In this document: in pieces, positions 6,290 to 23,251 of the stretch
Layout of the letters: each line of letters opens with the position of its first letter
Position numbering within the stretch: position 1 is the stretch's first letter
IMG/VR virus record: IMGVR_UViG_3300028025_000093
Span: 1-24,649 of that record
Length of the DNA stretch: 24,649 nucleotides
Direction: 5' to 3' (one strand)
From: a virus
Taxonomy: Duplodnaviria > Heunggongvirae > Uroviricota > Caudoviricetes
The notes under the pieces: generated by a model
What the model saw: the letters and a program-made list of their open reading frames with translations, nothing else
Databases searched by the model: none
What the model was told of the DNA's origin: nothing
Position numbers and translations under genes: made by a program

Positions 6290-6529
6290 ATGATTACTAA
6301 TTACAAAGAAGCACAATTGGCAACTGAACAATATGATAAATCTCATGGATCGTTTTTCGATCGTGGTTCAGCTGATAGCTACTATGGTCGTCCACGTGAT
6401 CCACATCGTGGTGGTGTTGGTGGTATGTCTGGTGAAAGAATCGATGCATGGCGTGAAGCAGACTTGCAAGCGTACCATGCTGGATATGATTATAACGAAC
6501 AATTTGGTGATAAGAAAAGCTGGGATTGA
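6290..6529 (+). CDS. Conserved phage hypothetical protein
   Basis: ATG 6290 after GGAG; HGSFFDRGSADSYYGR...AYHAGY motif. Confidence 0.7.
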   Translation: MITNYKEAQLATEQYDKSHGSFFDRGSADSYYGRPRDPHRGGVGGMSGERIDAWREADLQAYHAGYDYNEQFGDKKSWD

Positions 6530-6530
6530 T

Positions 6531-7034
6531 ATGGCACAAAGATTTATCGAAAATGTGAGTAAGAGCGATGTGTTTAATGGACACCACTATGATGTTGGTC
6601 CAAACGCAATGCTTATCCGCATTCAGGATCCAGCCACAGAGTTCGGTAAAATCAAGTATCCCTTCAAAGAGGTTTATGAGTTTGAATTCTTAGATGCTGA
6701 GGATGAAGACGGATTTGAAGATGAGTGCAAGATTCAAGATGAGCAAGCTGTAGAGATCGTTCGTTTGCTACAACGTGCCAAAGACAATGCAATGAACGTA
6801 GTGGTTCACTGCCACGCTGGTATCTGTCGTAGTGGTGCTGTGGTTGAAGTTGCAACGATGATGGGGTTTACTCCATCTGATCGTTATCGTCAACCTAATT
6901 TACGAGTCAAGCACAAGATGATGAAAGTCTTGGGTTGGACTTATGATGAAAATGAGAAAACCAGTTCCAGTGGTGGATGGGTTTCAGATGGTGGCATTAT
7001 GTTACCGTTCAGTGGTTACAATGAGGAAAATTGA
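6531..7034 (+). CDS. Cys-dependent (CX5R) protein tyrosine/dual-specificity phosphatase-like
   Basis: VVHCHAGICRSGAV P-loop; start reset to ATG 6531. Confidence 0.85.
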   Translation: MAQRFIENVSKSDVFNGHHYDVGPNAMLIRIQDPATEFGKIKYPFKEVYEFEFLDAEDEDGFEDECKIQDEQAVEIVRLLQRAKDNAMNVVVHCHAGICRSGAVVEVATMMGFTPSDRYRQPNLRVKHKMMKVLGWTYDENEKTSSSGGWVSDGGIMLPFSGYNEEN

Positions 7035-7036
7035 AT

Positions 7037-7387
7037 ATGAGTTTATATAATATGTTGTTTGGTGAGGGTGATTCAACTGATTTTCTTTTGAAGTTGCTTG
7101 ATGCAGAGCGTGATGACTTTGGTCGTTTCCGCTCTACCTATGTGACTGAAGAATACATTGTTGTTCACACTCGTTGTGGTGGTGGTAATCGTGAAGACTA
7201 TTTCCCTGATTGGGTTGAAGATCATCCGTTGTACTCGCATGATGCAGATGACGACTTTGATTGCACTTATGCGGATATCTACTTTAAACATCCAGTTGGA
7301 TATGAAGAAGTTCTAAAGGAAATGGCTGAGGGTACTATCACTCCAGCTGAAAAGTGGAAATTGTTATTTGAATCGTTGGAGAAATAA
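7037..7387 (+). CDS. Conserved acidic phage hypothetical protein
   Basis: VHTRCGGGNREDY...DDDFDCTYADIYF; RBS GAGG. Confidence 0.7.
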   Translation: MSLYNMLFGEGDSTDFLLKLLDAERDDFGRFRSTYVTEEYIVVHTRCGGGNREDYFPDWVEDHPLYSHDADDDFDCTYADIYFKHPVGYEEVLKEMAEGTITPAEKWKLLFESLEK

Positions 7388-7388
7388 A

Positions 7389-8396
7389 ATGCGTAAATTG
7401 GCTACTATTCGTAAGATTGATGCACTGACACCTATCGAGGGTGCAGATGCGATCGAGTGTGCCACTGTTGGTGGTTGGAAAGTTGTTGCACAGAAAGGTC
7501 TCTACAAAGAAGGAGATCTTGCTGTGTACTTTGAAATCGATTCTTGGATTCCATTTGAGTTGGCACCATTCCTGTGTAAAGGTAAAGAGCCACGTGAGTT
7601 CGAAGGCATCAAAGGTGAGCGTCTGCGCACTATCAAGTTGCGTGGTCAGATCTCTCAAGGTTTGCTGATGCCACTGGCTGAAGCATGCAAGAATATTGAT
7701 TCTGAATTGTTTGAAGGTTTGGATGTTTCGTTTCCACTGAATATTGTTAAGTGGGAGAAACCTATCAATGCTCAGCTTGCTGGCGTTTGCAAAGGCAACT
7801 TCCCTACGCAAATCCCCAAGACTGATCAAGAACGATGCCAGAACTTAAAGAAAGAGATTGCTGCAGCACGTGATTTTGTATTTGAAGTTACTGAAAAACT
7901 TGAAGGTTCTTCAATGACTGTGTACCAGATCAAAGGTGAGTTTGGTGTATGTTCACGTAACATGGATCTAAAAGAAACCGAAGGTAACTCTTTCTGGGCT
8001 ACTGCTCGCAAGGATGGTATTCAAGAAAAGATGATGGTTGTTGATGAGTTCTGGGATTTTGCTATCCAAGGCGAATTGATTGGTCCAGGAATTCAAGGTA
8101 ACATCTACGGTTTGAAAGAACCAGAATTCCGTGTCTTTGATGTGTATAACATTCAAGCAGGTGAGTACTTGAAGCCAGATGCTCGTCGTGCTCTAATCGA
8201 ACGTATGGGGTTAAAGCACACTCCAATACTGGATGATATGTTTGTTTTGAATGATGGAATTGAAGAACTACTAACTCTTGCTGAGGGTAAGTCTAGGATT
8301 GCTGATGTTGAACGTGAAGGTATCGTGTTTAAACAAACCGAAGGTGGAATGTCATTCAAATCTATTTCGAATAAATATTTGCTTGGCGAAAAATAA
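7389..8396 (+). CDS. ATP-dependent RNA ligase, DRB0094/Rnl2-like family with N-terminal OB domain
   Basis: MRKLATIRKI..PIEGADAIE N-terminus; motifs I TEKLEGSS, III QGELIG, IIIa FRVFDV, IV REGIVFK, V SFKSISNKYL. Confidence 0.9.
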   Translation: MRKLATIRKIDALTPIEGADAIECATVGGWKVVAQKGLYKEGDLAVYFEIDSWIPFELAPFLCKGKEPREFEGIKGERLRTIKLRGQISQGLLMPLAEACKNIDSELFEGLDVSFPLNIVKWEKPINAQLAGVCKGNFPTQIPKTDQERCQNLKKEIAAARDFVFEVTEKLEGSSMTVYQIKGEFGVCSRNMDLKETEGNSFWATARKDGIQEKMMVVDEFWDFAIQGELIGPGIQGNIYGLKEPEFRVFDVYNIQAGEYLKPDARRALIERMGLKHTPILDDMFVLNDGIEELLTLAEGKSRIADVEREGIVFKQTEGGMSFKSISNKYLLGEK

Positions 8397-20092: not shown

Positions 20093-20482
20093 ATGGCATA
20101 CTCAGATAAAGTAATAGATCACTACGAAAACCCACGCAATGTGGGTTCTTTCTCTAAAGAAGAGGAAGGTGTAGGAACAGGAATGGTTGGTGCACCAGCT
20201 TGTGGTGACGTAATGAAACTACAGATTAAGGTAGATGCAGATGGTATTATTAGAGATGCTCGTTTCAAGACATATGGATGCGGTTCAGCAATCGCCAGTT
20301 CGTCTCTGGTTACAGAGTTGGTTAAGGGTATGCACATTGATGCTGCTACTAACATATCTAACTCTGAGATCGCAGAAGAACTAGCCTTACCTCCAGTTAA
20401 GATTCACTGCTCAATTTTAGCAGAAGATGCAATCAAGGCAGCAGTTGCAGATTATAAAGCAAAGAATGATAACACTAACTGA
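20093..20482 (+). CDS. iscU: Fe-S cluster scaffold IscU
   Basis: MAYSDKVIDHYENPRNVG, APACGDVM, YGCGSAIAS, LPPVKIHCS. Confidence 0.97.
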   Translation: MAYSDKVIDHYENPRNVGSFSKEEEGVGTGMVGAPACGDVMKLQIKVDADGIIRDARFKTYGCGSAIASSSLVTELVKGMHIDAATNISNSEIAEELALPPVKIHCSILAEDAIKAAVADYKAKNDNTN

Positions 20483-20786
20483 GGTTGCTGCATCAAAGAT
20501 TACATCTCATCTAACCAAACGAAAAACTGGAATTGGTATTAGGTTAGGTGTTAGAACAACAGGTTGTTCTGGCTTGGCTTATATTTTAGAATTTGCAGAT
20601 AAGTTAGAAGACACAGATGTTGTGTATGAAGATCGTGGTATCAAATTGATTGTCGATCCAAAAAGTTTAGTTTATCTAACTGGAATGATAGTTGATTATA
20701 CACGAAATGGTCTGAATGAAGGATTTGAATTCAGCAACCCAAATGAACGTGACCGATGTGGTTGCGGAGAAAGTTTCAGGATATGA
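20466..20786 (+). CDS. iscA: A-type Fe-S carrier IscA
   Basis: MITLTE, GVRTTGCSGLAY, GLNEGFEF.NPN, CGCGESF. Confidence 0.95.
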   Translation: MITLTEVAASKITSHLTKRKTGIGIRLGVRTTGCSGLAYILEFADKLEDTDVVYEDRGIKLIVDPKSLVYLTGMIVDYTRNGLNEGFEFSNPNERDRCGCGESFRI

Positions 20787-21085
20787 TAACGATCACAGAA
20801 AACGCTACAGCTAAAATCGCAGACTTGTTGGCTGAACACCAAGAGTCTCATTTACGCATCTCAGTGAGGGGTGGTGGTTGCTCTGGTTTCTCGTATGCGT
20901 TTGAATTTGGCGACAAAGAAGAAGATGACTTTGAACTTGGTACAGTTCTTGTCGATGCCATGAGTATGCAGTACTTGCAAGGTGGTACTGTTGACTACAC
21001 TGATGAACTTATGGGTGCTTCATTCAAAGTTTCCAATCCAAATGCAACTAGCACTTGTGGGTGTGGCTCTAGCTTTGCAGCATAA
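20783..21085 (+). CDS. erpA: A-type Fe-S carrier, ErpA-like
   Basis: GGGCSGFSY, VDAMSMQYL, NPNATSTCGCGSSF. Confidence 0.9.
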   Translation: MITITENATAKIADLLAEHQESHLRISVRGGGCSGFSYAFEFGDKEEDDFELGTVLVDAMSMQYLQGGTVDYTDELMGASFKVSNPNATSTCGCGSSFAA

Positions 21086-21098
21086 AAGTCAAAAATAC

Positions 21099-21127
21099 TT
21101 TACTAAAACTACATACTGACGTATAAT
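21099..21127 (+). promoter_or_regulatory. Sigma70-type promoter P1 of tRNA region
   Basis: TTTACT-17 bp-TATAAT. Confidence 0.75.
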
Positions 21128-21131
21128 TAAG

Positions 21132-21138
21132 CTAAATA
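21132..21138 (+). promoter_or_regulatory. Candidate late promoter CTAAATA
   Basis: Intergenic, upstream of the tRNA leader. Confidence 0.4.
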
Positions 21139-21188
21139 GTAAGTGAACCAAATAACCCTGCGTGTTGCAAGGTTATTAAATTTAGTGC

Positions 21189-21217
21189 TTTACTTTAAAT
21201 CAAAATAGGCGTATAAT
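21189..21217 (+). promoter_or_regulatory. Sigma70-type promoter P2 of tRNA region
   Basis: TTTACT-17 bp-TATAAT; predicted +1 falls on the A of ATG 21224. Confidence 0.85.
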
Positions 21218-21223
21218 TCTTAC

Positions 21224-21343
21224 ATGAACTCGAAAATGATATCCTTAGGCAATAAGCATCTACCACTTAATAGTGGTTGGGTATGCTCACGTCCACAGTA
21301 TACATTTGCGATTGAGTCAGACAGTGAGGGTTTTGTAAAGTAA
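21224..21343 (+). CDS. Putative attenuator leader peptide (39 aa) containing all 20 amino acids
   Basis: MNSKMISLGNKHLPLNSGWVCSRPQYTFAIESDSEGFVK; stop codon lies in the antiterminator 5' arm. Confidence 0.7.
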   Translation: MNSKMISLGNKHLPLNSGWVCSRPQYTFAIESDSEGFVK

Positions 21344-21372
21344 AGTTATTTACCTTATTTTCCAAAACCCTC
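21326..21372 (+). promoter_or_regulatory. Antiterminator hairpin
   Basis: GAGGGTTTTGTAAAGTAA (21326-21343) pairs with TTATTTTCCAAAACCCTC (21355-21372), 17 of 18 positions including one G-U. Confidence 0.75.
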
Positions 21373-21399
21373 TGAGATGAAAGTCCAGAGGGTTTTTTT
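21364..21399 (+). terminator. Intrinsic terminator (attenuator) before the tRNA array
   Basis: AAAACCCTCTG...GAT-GAAA-GTC...CAGAGGG followed by 7 T. Confidence 0.9.
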
Positions 21400-21420
21400 G
21401 TTTTAGGGCATCGTCCCAAT

Positions 21421-21433
21421 TGTTCTTTAAAAA
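21421..21433 (+). promoter_or_regulatory. rrn-type boxA antitermination element
   Basis: TGTTCTTTAAAAA vs E. coli rrn boxA TGCTCTTTAACAA; preceded by a small hairpin at 21403-21419. Confidence 0.7.
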
Positions 21434-21449
21434 TTTGCGTACCAAATGT

Positions 21450-21523
21450 TCCCGAGTAGTGTAGTGGTAACACACCAGACTTTGACTCTGTTATTGTAAG
21501 TTCGATTCTTACCTCGGGTGCCA
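21450..21523 (+). tRNA. tRNA-Gln(TTG)
   Basis: Cloverleaf, loop CT-TTG-AC, TTCGA, encoded CCA. Confidence 0.92.
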
Positions 21524-21596
21524 TAGAGAAGCACATCATTAGCGTGTGGGAGGATGACCGATGCCCACTATGCGTGGTCCAGGTGTGCTTCTCTAT
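21523..21596 (+). ncRNA. Structured RNA spacer, unknown function
   Basis: 15-bp closing stem ATAGAGAAGCACATC/GGTGTGCTTCTCTAT, inner GTGGG/CCCAC stem. Confidence 0.5.
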
Positions 21597-21670
21597 GGGA
21601 GTATAACTTAGTGGTAAAGTAACTGGCTTTTAACCAGTAAACCAGAGTTCAATTCTCTGTGCTCCTACCA
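21597..21670 (+). tRNA. tRNA-Lys(TTT)
   Basis: ACTGG-CT-TTT-AA-CCAGT, CCA end. Confidence 0.93.
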
Positions 21671-21682
21671 GTTTTCTTTGGT

Positions 21683-21756
21683 GTGACTATAGTGTAATGG
21701 TAGCACCCCACACTGTGACTGTGTTAGTATGGGTTCAAATCCCATTAGTCACCCCA
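21683..21756 (+). tRNA. tRNA-His(GTG)
   Basis: Loop CT-GTG-AC, C73, CCA; no genomic G-1. Confidence 0.9.
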
Positions 21757-21767
21757 AAGAGAATTGC

Positions 21768-21843
21768 GCAACTTTAGCTGATGTGGTCATAGCGGTGGTC
21801 TGAAGAGCCATTGAAATAGGTTCGATTCCTATAGGTTGCACCA
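21768..21843 (+). tRNA. tRNA-Phe(GAA)
   Basis: GTGGT-CT-GAA-GA-GCCAT, CCA end. Confidence 0.92.
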
Positions 21844-21848
21844 AATAT

Positions 21849-21922
21849 ACCTAGGTAGCTCAATGGTAGAGCAATCGGCTGATAACCGATAGACAGAAGT
21901 TCAATTCTTCTTCTAGGTACCA
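21849..21922 (+). tRNA. tRNA-Ile(GAT)
   Basis: ATCGG-CT-GAT-AA-CCGAT, CCA end. Confidence 0.93.
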
Positions 21923-21928
21923 AGTTTC

Positions 21929-22003
21929 GCCCTTGTATCCTTAATGGTAGAGGTTCGCTCTTGTAAGGCGAGTGATGCGGTTCGATTCCGTACTGGGGCA
22001 CCA
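21929..22003 (+). tRNA. tRNA-Thr(TGT)
   Basis: TCGCT-CT-TGT-AA-GGCGA, CCA end. Confidence 0.92.
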
Positions 22004-22010
22004 AGTTTTT

Positions 22011-22084
22011 CAGGGAATAGGATAGTGGTAGTCGACGAGTCTTGGATACTCGAGGTGGGAGTTCGATTCTCCCTTCCCTGACCA
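22011..22084 (+). tRNA. tRNA-Pro(TGG)
   Basis: CGAGT-CT-TGG-AT-ACTCG, C1:G72, CCA end. Confidence 0.92.
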
Positions 22085-22090
22085 CGTTTT

Positions 22091-22165
22091 GGGGGCAGTA
22101 GTGGGCTACGGGTAACCCTTGCAAGGTTTCTGTCTAGAAGGGTTCGATTCCCTCGGCTTCCACCA
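22091..22165 (+). tRNA. Atypical tRNA-Ala(TGC)
   Basis: G3:U70, loop CT-TGC-AA, TTCGA, CCA; shrunken D arm. Confidence 0.75.
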
Positions 22166-22173
22166 AATTTTAC

Positions 22174-22248
22174 ACTGCGTTCGACTTCAGGTGAGGTCAT
22201 CACCCTTTCAAGGTGACTAGATGGGATCGTTACCCATACGCAGTACCA
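22174..22248 (+). tRNA. tRNA-Glu(TTC)
   Basis: TCACC-CT-TTC-AA-GGTGA; T-loop ATCGTTA; CCA end. Confidence 0.88.
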
Positions 22249-22253
22249 GTTAT

Positions 22254-22328
22254 GCAGGATTAATTCAGTGGTAGAATGTTTCGTTGCCAACGAAAATGTC
22301 ATCGGTTCAAATCCGATATCCTGCTCCA
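22254..22328 (+). tRNA. tRNA-Gly(GCC)
   Basis: TTTCG-TT-GCC-AA-CGAAA, U73, CCA end. Confidence 0.93.
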
Positions 22329-22336
22329 GTTAGTAT

Positions 22337-22410
22337 GCCTCGTTAGTTTAATGGTAGAACTCTGCTTTTACACAGCAGTCACGGCAGTTCGATTCTGTCA
22401 CGAGGTACCA
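22337..22410 (+). tRNA. tRNA-Val(TAC)
   Basis: CTGCT-TT-TAC-AC-AGCAG, CCA end. Confidence 0.92.
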
Positions 22411-22416
22411 AGTTAT

Positions 22417-22492
22417 GCCCGATTGGTGAAATGGATGATCATACTGTGCTACGAACGCAGAGGTAGAGGTTCAATTCCTCTATTGGGTACCA
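22417..22492 (+). tRNA. tRNA-Arg(ACG)
   Basis: CTGTG-CT-ACG-AA-CGCAG, CCA end. Confidence 0.92.
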
Positions 22493-22498
22493 AGTTAT

Positions 22499-22592
22499 GG
22501 AGAGTAATGCAGCGGGGATGGTCCTGCGACTGGCCTTGAAAACCAGGTTCTGCTTAATCGCGGATGGGGTTCGACTCCTCTGCTCTCCGCCA
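22499..22592 (+). tRNA. tRNA-Ser(TGA), probable 8/4 fold
   Basis: Loop CT-TGA-AA, long variable arm, G73; acceptor GGAGAGTA/TGCTCTCC, T-stem GGGG/CCTC. Confidence 0.88.
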
Positions 22593-22657: not shown

Positions 22658-22687
22658 AGTGTCTTGATGTTATGAAAGGAGTTGTAT

Positions 22688-23251
22688 ATGCCAAGTGTAT
22701 TTTTAGTAAGCGATACGCACTTTGGTCACGCTGGCGTATGCAGGTTCACGCATGGTGACACTGATGTGAAGATTCGCCCATGGACTGATCCAGATGAGAT
22801 GGATGAAGCAATGGTAAAGATGTGGAACGAAACTGTAAAGCCAACTGATAAAGTTTATCATCTTGGTGACGTAGTTATCAATCGTAAAGCATTGGGAATC
22901 ATGCGTAGGTTAAATGGTGATAAAGTTTTGATTCGTGGTAACCATGACATCTTTCGAGATGATGAGTACCGTGAACATTTTCGTGAGTTACGTGCATACC
23001 ACGTAATGAACGGGATGATCTTAAGCCACATACCGATTCATGAAGAAAGTTTAGGTAGGTTTGGTACTAACATTCATGGGCACTTACACACAAATCGTGT
23101 AATGAAAAATGGTGTTGTTGATCCACGCTACCACTGCGTCTGCGTTGAACAAACAGACTTCAGACCCATCTTGTTTGAAGACGTGATTCAAAGAATCAAA
23201 GACGAAGGTGGTAGCGTGGGTTTCAAGAATGGTAATGGACCTACTATGTAA
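22688..23251 (+). CDS. Calcineurin-like metallophosphoesterase
   Basis: SDTHFGH, HLGDV, GNHD, LSHIP, HGHLH motifs. Confidence 0.92.
   Translation: MPSVFLVSDTHFGHAGVCRFTHGDTDVKIRPWTDPDEMDEAMVKMWNETVKPTDKVYHLGDVVINRKALGIMRRLNGDKVLIRGNHDIFRDDEYREHFRELRAYHVMNGMILSHIPIHEESLGRFGTNIHGHLHTNRVMKNGVVDPRYHCVCVEQTDFRPILFEDVIQRIKDEGGSVGFKNGNGPTM

Follow-up and report, generated by a model that had tools for sequence, protein, structure and literature searches.

An open reading frame (ORF) of 39 codons that includes all 20 amino acids, MNSKMISLGNKHLPLNSGWVCSRPQYTFAIESDSEGFVK, precedes an array of tRNA genes in the T4-like phage record IMGVR_UViG_3300028025_000093 and appears, from comparison with its relatives, to be a real, conserved regulatory element, representing a form of leader-peptide attenuation absent from the literature searched. 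The stretch analysed, termed the window, covers the initial 24.6 kb (24,649 nucleotides, nt) of this complete 161,882 bp virus record, which has terminal repeats. The leader would probably act as a leaderless, ribosome-timed transcription attenuator, raising tRNA transcription when its one-of-each-amino-acid peptide is decoded slowly. Confidence is high in the putative anatomy of this attenuator and moderate in the idea that it senses all amino acids, and selection for amino-acid completeness within an apparently translation-coupled attenuator is well supported.

The leader peptide and its homologues

All 20 amino acids are represented between codons 5 and 33 of the leader, which uses 29 distinct codons, as stated in a preliminary description of this DNA. 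The frequency of such completeness among random ORFs of this length, for which that description called, is approximately 0.2%, the probability of finding all 20 amino acids in 39 residues being 0.002 under the phage's own composition. The full set is present in 58 of 39,260 windows of 39 residues taken from the phage's long ORFs, and the leader is alone in containing it among 169 ORFs in the genome that start with ATG and encode 35-45 amino acids (aa). The 29 distinct codons are ordinary for this peptide under phage codon usage (28.7 expected). Codon diversity summed across the family exceeds expectation (1484 vs 1371 ± 12.5), a comparison that applies this genome's codon usage to all members and ignores their relatedness, and which is only a hint of an excess. 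A Pfam search with the leader peptide returned no match.

Homologues were initially reached through an upstream IscA-like gene, which led to three contigs with the same arrangement; the four peptides were aligned (A1), and a wider search followed. Among viral contigs 72 have the homologous ORF, as do 32 metagenome contigs that for the most part duplicate these records; with the window added to the 72 loci, the family numbers 73 entries, with peptide identities down to about 47%. A tRNA array lies downstream on the same strand at each of the 63 loci for which 300 nt or more of downstream sequence is available, beginning with tRNA-Gln(UUG) in 61 of 64 cases, usually 107-135 nt past the stop codon, and no tRNA was found upstream of the leader at any locus in the up to 1.5 kb of sequence there. 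No cultured phage carrying the leader was found among 50,697 GenBank phage records, against which a DNA search with 20700-21700 gave no match and tblastn with the leader peptide detected no relative, the best hit (E 0.1) lying inside a primase gene. More distant loci reached via the IscA-like neighbour (L005-L032) were set aside as uninformative, there being no tRNAs at these positions. One lineage, L038/L002 (4374-4500), is apparently a decayed form of the leader, having a GTG start and a deletion of the ORF end and terminator; its sister L105 (1200-1400) retains both intact and has a leader without Arg, and the first tRNA sub-array has been lost from L038/L002 and L105 alike. Inspection upstream of related tRNA arrays, suggested in the preliminary description, found that homologues keep a leaderless-looking ORF, 19-20 amino acids and the covarying arms described below.

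The 43 unique peptides from viral contigs comprise 29 with all 20 amino acids, 13 without Val only and one without Arg only. A scan of metagenomes added three unique peptides (one complete and two incomplete, lacking Val and Arg, respectively), such that 30 of all 46 are complete and 16 lack a single residue (Val in 14, Arg in two). These counts were compared with a tree-aware null, in which the tree, its branches and the columns of inferred substitutions were fixed and only the new residues were redrawn; the tree was taken from the leader region itself and the reconstruction was by parsimony. With BLOSUM-weighted replacement 5.7 of the 43 tips were complete and none of 2000 runs reached 29, and with column-specific residues the corresponding values were 11.9 tips and one run in 2000. 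In no null run did every one of the 43 tips retain at least 19 amino acids. Similarly, when one representative was taken from each of 14 clusters (<70% identity), 10.4 of 14 were complete, against 1.99 ± 1.2 with shuffled columns (maximum 7 in 6000).

Five residues, Cys, Tyr, Gln, Glu and Asp, shift position yet stay in the peptide. For instance, the Cys, of which 42 of 43 peptides have exactly one, is placed in the core (W-x-C-S-R) or else close to the N-terminus, and Tyr is found in five different columns, exactly once per peptide. Despite being spread over 4-5 columns, Cys, Asp and Tyr are never absent, where the null expects 3.7, 2.8 and 9.0 tips without them; it does as well as observed in 10, 9 and 6 of 1000 runs, respectively. 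Exactly one Cys, His, Trp and Tyr are present in 42-43 of the 43 peptides, the range becoming 41-43 when Asp and Gln are added to this list, and there are no codon runs. The tree-aware and thinned shuffles and the relocation of rare residues together argue that completeness has been selected and not just inherited.

Parsimony substitutions, counted by codon position across 47 unique ORF sequences, differ along the leader. In the core, changes at positions 1/2/3 number 0/0/8 for K, 0/0/3 for H, 2/0/8 for L, 0/0/7 for P and 0/0/13 for G; these codons have undergone 0-1 amino-acid changes, the core H, P, G and W have undergone none, and the ratio of non-synonymous to synonymous polymorphism (pN/pS) in KHLPL..GW..SR is 0.37. 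Such concentration of change at third positions argues that the leader ORF is translated, and protein-level selection on it is shown insofar as substitution patterns can reveal it. By contrast, changes in the last codons, which form a helix arm, are distributed 16/28/20, with no third-position excess. It therefore seems that the ORF evolves as protein at its front and middle and as RNA at its end. A further small hairpin within codons 14-18 is preserved across the family by compensatory, even non-synonymous, codon changes, and is possibly an RNA polymerase pause hairpin.

Competing helices and the predicted leaderless start

The end of the ORF can pair with sequence running into the terminator at 17 of 18 positions (16 Watson-Crick and one G-U), which reproduces the pairing first described. 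As the nine nucleotides 21364-21372 belong to both helices, the antiterminator and terminator are mutually exclusive, and this element of the preliminary description was likewise borne out. The two hairpins are nearly iso-energetic, the antiterminator having a free energy of -19.1 kcal/mol (z-score -6.0) and the terminator -18.4 kcal/mol (z-score -5.2) when each is folded alone. RNA extending as far as 21386, before the 3' arm of the terminator emerges, folds into the antiterminator. The terminator stem has a bulge, and a simple terminator scan did not report it. No T-box or other cis-regulatory family was found in an Rfam scan of 21086-21449 (E up to 1), and elsewhere only tRNAs were identified; a sub-threshold match to a miRNA precursor on the minus strand (21312-21390; 30.1 bits, the cut-off being 86) was dismissed as reflecting the long hairpin.

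Both helices show covariation, for which the preliminary description had suggested a test. In an alignment of 44 distinct sequences (A2), from which L038 was excluded owing to the loss of its terminator, 91.1% of 734 antiterminator cells are paired, compared with 40-69% in slid controls, and five pairs have changed on both sides (2.0 ± 0.9 in shuffles, 1/500 being as high). For the terminator, 96.4% of 590 cells are paired and seven pairs have changed on both sides, a number equalled in 0/500 shuffles; this helix, too, surpasses its slid controls. The segment common to both helices is almost invariant, as expected because this strand has two partners. Where the peptide ends diverge, as in L063 (...EGWDG), L048 (...RGLRK) and L056 (...GGSVK), the partner strand has altered in step.

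The preliminary description had proposed that transcription from the promoter P2 starts at the ATG of the leader. The promoter is present as described: the A of this ATG is the seventh base past the -10 hexamer, and no motif resembling a Shine-Dalgarno sequence was found in the 12 nt 5' of it. Promoter-like sites are not enriched in the region (11, against 10.0 ± 3.4 in shuffles). In the genome as a whole, an ATG follows the -10 by exactly 6 nt at eight of 27 consensus early-type promoters, four of these ATGs opening ORFs of 113-409 aa, and leaderless early mRNAs therefore seem, from this spacing, to be common in this phage. Across the family, a -10-like hexamer ends 6-7 nt 5' of the start in 66 of 73 entries, placing the ATG at the seventh or eighth base in a geometry predicted from sequence alone, and 4 nt 5' of it in two; the remaining five, assessed by eye, have weaker -10 hexamers. 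Contigs of relatives from RNA runs span 21192-21317 (X16) and 21171-21438 (X19), these being assemblies that carry no start, end or strand information and may include DNA carry-over.

A second promoter-like site, P1, follows the two IscA-like genes upstream of P2, and its transcripts would hold the leader AUG internally, without a Shine-Dalgarno sequence. Hairpins similar to the one that follows P1 (ACCTTACAGTTTGTAGGGTTATT) are found beside extra promoters in the relatives L003 (4620-4660) and L004 (4650-4780), and P1 with its hairpin (21099-21186) looks like a recurring promoter-hairpin module.

Table 1. Positions of features in the window and, for the last row, in the whole genome (G000)
Feature	Position	Strand	Remarks
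Promoter-like site P1, TTTACT-17-TATAAT	21099..21127	+	same consensus as P2; upstream of P2, after two IscA-like genes
Hairpin AAUAACCCUGC..GCAAGGUUAUU after P1	21151..21177	+	no U-tract; -10.3 kcal/mol, z-score -3.45
Promoter P2, TTTACT-17-TATAAT	21189..21217	+	+1 predicted at the A of ATG 21224
Leader ORF, 39 codons and TAA	21224..21343	+	peptide MNSKMISLGNKHLPLNSGWVCSRPQYTFAIESDSEGFVK; all 20 amino acids; predicted leaderless
Conserved mini-hairpin CCACU-UAAU-AGUGG	21263..21276	+	inside codons 14-18; 5 bp
Antiterminator 5' arm	21326..21343	+	last five codons and stop codon
Antiterminator 3' arm	21355..21372	+	21364-21372 common with terminator
Intrinsic terminator	21364..21399	+	11+3 bp stem, then U7
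Mini-hairpin GGGCAUCGUCCC / GGGCATCGTCCC	21406..21417	+	between terminator and tRNA-Gln
First tRNA sub-array (genes presumed gated)	21450..22590	+	Gln, Lys, His, Phe, Ile, Thr, Pro, Ala, Glu, Gly, Val, Arg, then Ser(UGA)-like
Promoters with ATG 6 nt after the -10	33689, 37619, 39971, 42639, 49168, 49437, 145305, and P2 at 21189

Proposed attenuation by decoding speed and its alternatives

These components suggest a mechanism in which transcription would begin at the A of the AUG and a 70S ribosome would load at the 5' end, while RNA polymerase may pause past the mini-hairpin of codons 14-18 until the ribosome catches up. A ribosome that kept pace would by then occupy the final codons or the stop and mask the antiterminator's 5' arm, such that the terminator could fold and halt transcription before tRNA-Gln. 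Were the ribosome instead to lag, up to about codon 30-31, the free end of the ORF would pair first with the antiterminator 3' arm, trapping the 5' arm of the terminator and allowing the polymerase to continue into the tRNA genes. Since almost every amino acid is represented in the leader by roughly one codon, and tRNAs for all 20 are encoded by the phage, the leader could be a negative-feedback gauge of overall aminoacyl-tRNA supply rather than of a single amino acid. An extended form of this proposal is a decoding-capacity homeostat, in which a leaderless peptide with one of nearly each codon would be raced against RNA polymerase and a shortage in any of about 18-19 aminoacyl-tRNA pools would switch on the phage's complete tRNA set; such a shortage could stem from host shut-off, starvation or cleavage of tRNA by host anticodon-nuclease defences. 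We regard this extended form as conceivable but somewhat doubtful, and the link between the leader and host anticodon nucleases, drawn in the preliminary description, as pure inference.

Several observations weigh against an attenuator that reads decoding speed across all amino acids. Folding with and without ribosome masking, which the preliminary description had suggested, reproduced no switch: at equilibrium the terminator predominates in folds of the entire leader, masked or not (P about 0.8-0.95), this falling to 0.57 with the ribosomal A site at codon 31, and the antiterminator is present in the minimum free-energy structure of slightly longer RNA at a frequency of only 0.0018. Given this preference regardless of mask, the switch can only be kinetic. 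The reach of the sensor is also restricted. In a steric model, in which a ribosome covers its A-site codon and a further 12 nt (9 nt when slack is allowed), a stall frees the arm for only 15-19 amino acids; Asp is too near the arm in 45 of the 47 leaders in which the terminator arm was found, and in the window's leader Asp33 is out of sensing range and Glu31 borderline. In this check the terminator arm was misplaced in L054 and L056, L059 was skipped for its weak U-tract and L038 was omitted because of its lost terminator. Of the unique leaders, 14 of 46 have no Val and 15 of 43 no internal (elongator) Met, the retention of these residues being no better than in the null (275 and 164 of 1000 runs), and no link was detected between a leader without Val and an array without tRNA-Val (17/9 vs 7/3). 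Hence the preliminary claim that loss of any charged tRNA would free the arm could hold for most amino acids, which are suitably placed, and not for Asp, at whose codon a stalled ribosome would mask the arm, nor for the frequently absent Val and internal Met; 'any amino acid' is too strong, and 'nearly all' fits. Transcripts from P1 and, in some relatives, from extra promoters past the terminator would bypass the switch. Moreover, the conservation of the core KHLPLxSGW greatly exceeds what a sensor of composition alone requires, which shows selection apparently acting on more than composition. Finally, homologues were found via two conserved peptide motifs, biasing the view of the family towards conserved members.

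Given this conservation of the core, which a composition sensor does not explain, the nascent peptide may itself have a role. An alternative is therefore that the leader is a translation-coupled attenuator in which KHLPLxSGW..SR acts on the ribosome tunnel or a factor, in the manner of the arrest peptides TnaC, SecM and Erm, or, in a variant, that the element merely reports ribosome availability or the capacity for leaderless initiation; in either case diversity would be a side effect. The anatomy of the attenuator fits this explanation equally well, and both the purifying selection on the core and the poor placement or frequent absence of Asp, Val and internal Met are in its favour. However, an arrest-peptide model does not predict that rare residues lost at one position (Cys, Tyr, Gln, Glu and Asp) should reappear at another, the empty Pfam search matched no known arrest motif, and the overlap of the core with the conserved mini-hairpin may explain part of its conservation, such that this explanation is considered unlikely. 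An ordinary gene for a small phage protein is less likely still. It would have its own terminator, the pairing merely stabilising the 3' end of the message, with the tRNAs expressed by leaky readthrough and from other promoters. The peptide is conserved and seemingly translated, and small early genes behind similar promoters are common in the genome, but a simple 3' end would not be expected to possess a covarying helix of 17-18 bp that includes the stop codon and 9 nt of the terminator stem. Furthermore, the C-terminal residues follow the RNA pairing, as seen in L063 and in the distribution of changes in the arm, and neither the invariable link to tRNA arrays nor the completeness statistics favour such a gene.

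Two further explanations can be rejected. P2 and the terminator would yield a discrete RNA of approximately 175 nt with significant structure (z-score -3.63), as would suit a small RNA or processing signal containing a fortuitous ORF; yet third-position changes accumulate in the core without altering amino acids, the frame is open and begins with ATG in 72 of 73 entries and no Rfam family was matched, making a non-coding element very improbable. That both the ORF and its diversity arose by chance in this one window is scarcely credible: some rare coincidences are to be expected when 24 kb is scanned, and the number of distinct codons is unremarkable, but the probability for a single ORF is already low, and completeness recurs over the 14 sequence clusters.

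Genomic setting and relation to known attenuators

The phage is T4-like, encoding a T4-type major capsid protein Gp23 (PF07068; E 1.1e-136) together with replication genes and a clustered tRNA array; Pfam domains in the genome include the T4 RNase H C-terminal domain, SegE, RNA ligase and dCMP deaminase. The genome contains 27 tRNAs that together cover all 20 amino acids. The 13 tRNA genes originally described directly downstream of the leader consist of 12 identified by ARAGORN within 21450-22492, the first of which, tRNA-Gln, begins 107 nt past the leader stop codon, and a tRNA-Ser(UGA)-like gene at 22497-22590 that ARAGORN did not call; the latter scores 36.5 bits against the Rfam tRNA-Sec model, below the cut-off, and can be aligned to the called tRNA-Ser(tga) of L003. 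Among the tRNAs of relatives, one in L003 (8102-8178) has a CTA anticodon that would read amber (labelled Pyl by ARAGORN), and the arrays of L066 and L097 include calls of tRNA-Tyr with the anticodon ATA.

Two other structures are associated with the array. Between tRNA-Gln and tRNA-Lys, a near-perfect hairpin of 73 nt (21524-21596; -34 kcal/mol, z-score -4.4), without an Rfam match, could be a stable small RNA or processing element. In relatives, the mini-hairpin preceding tRNA-Gln has a constant CATCG loop and a variable stem (GGCCATCGTGCC, AGCCATCGTGCT), and may be a site of processing or protein binding. Immediately before the tRNA region, 20093-21085 encodes IscU (NifU_N, E 1.5e-53) and two IscA-like proteins of Fe-S assembly. 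The window also encodes an RNA ligase (6333-7034; PF09414 and PHA02142 OB fold), a protein resembling dual-specificity phosphatases (7368-8396) and a metallophosphoesterase (22682-23251), the gene for which sits inside the tRNA array; these could be a tRNA/RNA repair set.

Leader-peptide attenuators of enterobacterial amino-acid operons include trpL, hisL, pheL, leuL, thrL and ilvL. Like leaders of the trpL/hisL type, the phage element appears to comprise a short translated ORF (39 codons) directly upstream of the putatively regulated genes on the same strand, an intrinsic terminator before them, an antiterminator using the terminator's 5' arm and a candidate pause hairpin within the leader. 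A read-out by ribosome position is predicted, and the stop codon inside the arm would fit this geometry. It differs in having around one codon of nearly every amino acid rather than a run of one, in having no Shine-Dalgarno sequence and being predicted to be leaderless, in the absence of an evident separate anti-antiterminator segment 1, in the location of its stop codon inside the antiterminator arm, and in preceding phage tRNA genes rather than biosynthetic ones. The pheL leader is treated in PMC3082878. In mycobacteria, leaderless polycysteine short ORFs are reported to be cysteine-responsive attenuators (bioRxiv 10.1101/834739). The phage leader resembles these in being a short ORF, predicted to lie at the 5' end of its transcript, that would steer downstream expression by its own translation. 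The mycobacterial ORFs reportedly have runs of Cys codons and control cysteine-related genes in a bacterium, whereas the phage leader has a single Cys in almost all peptides, precedes tRNA genes and differs in its clear terminator/antiterminator pair.

T-box riboswitches bind one specific uncharged tRNA directly and contain no ORF. The phage leader is proposed to resemble them in that readthrough at a terminator/antiterminator pair is tied to tRNA charging; unlike them, it would read all pools indirectly via the ribosome, and it matched no T-box covariance model. The tRNA clusters of T4 and T4-like phages are located in the early region with sigma-70-type promoters, and the array described here is likewise clustered in a T4-like genome. 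We know of no leader-peptide attenuator for T4-like tRNA clusters, and a literature search found neither an attenuator before phage tRNA genes nor a leader that contains every amino acid.

The leader bears on why phages have tRNA genes and on the control of these genes, and suggests that feedback from decoding speed may be involved. It would widen leader-peptide attenuation from one amino acid to all pools together, from leaders with a Shine-Dalgarno sequence to leaderless ones, and from biosynthetic operons to genes of the translation machinery. An element as compact as this, about 210 nt, could also be used to report global translation stress. If the homeostat proposal were true, the leader would be the first attenuator to integrate all amino acids and the first regulator known to act on phage tRNA genes, as well as an on-demand counter-defence sensor; if the element responds to tRNA cleavage, phage tRNA arrays would be tied to the anticodon-nuclease arms race.

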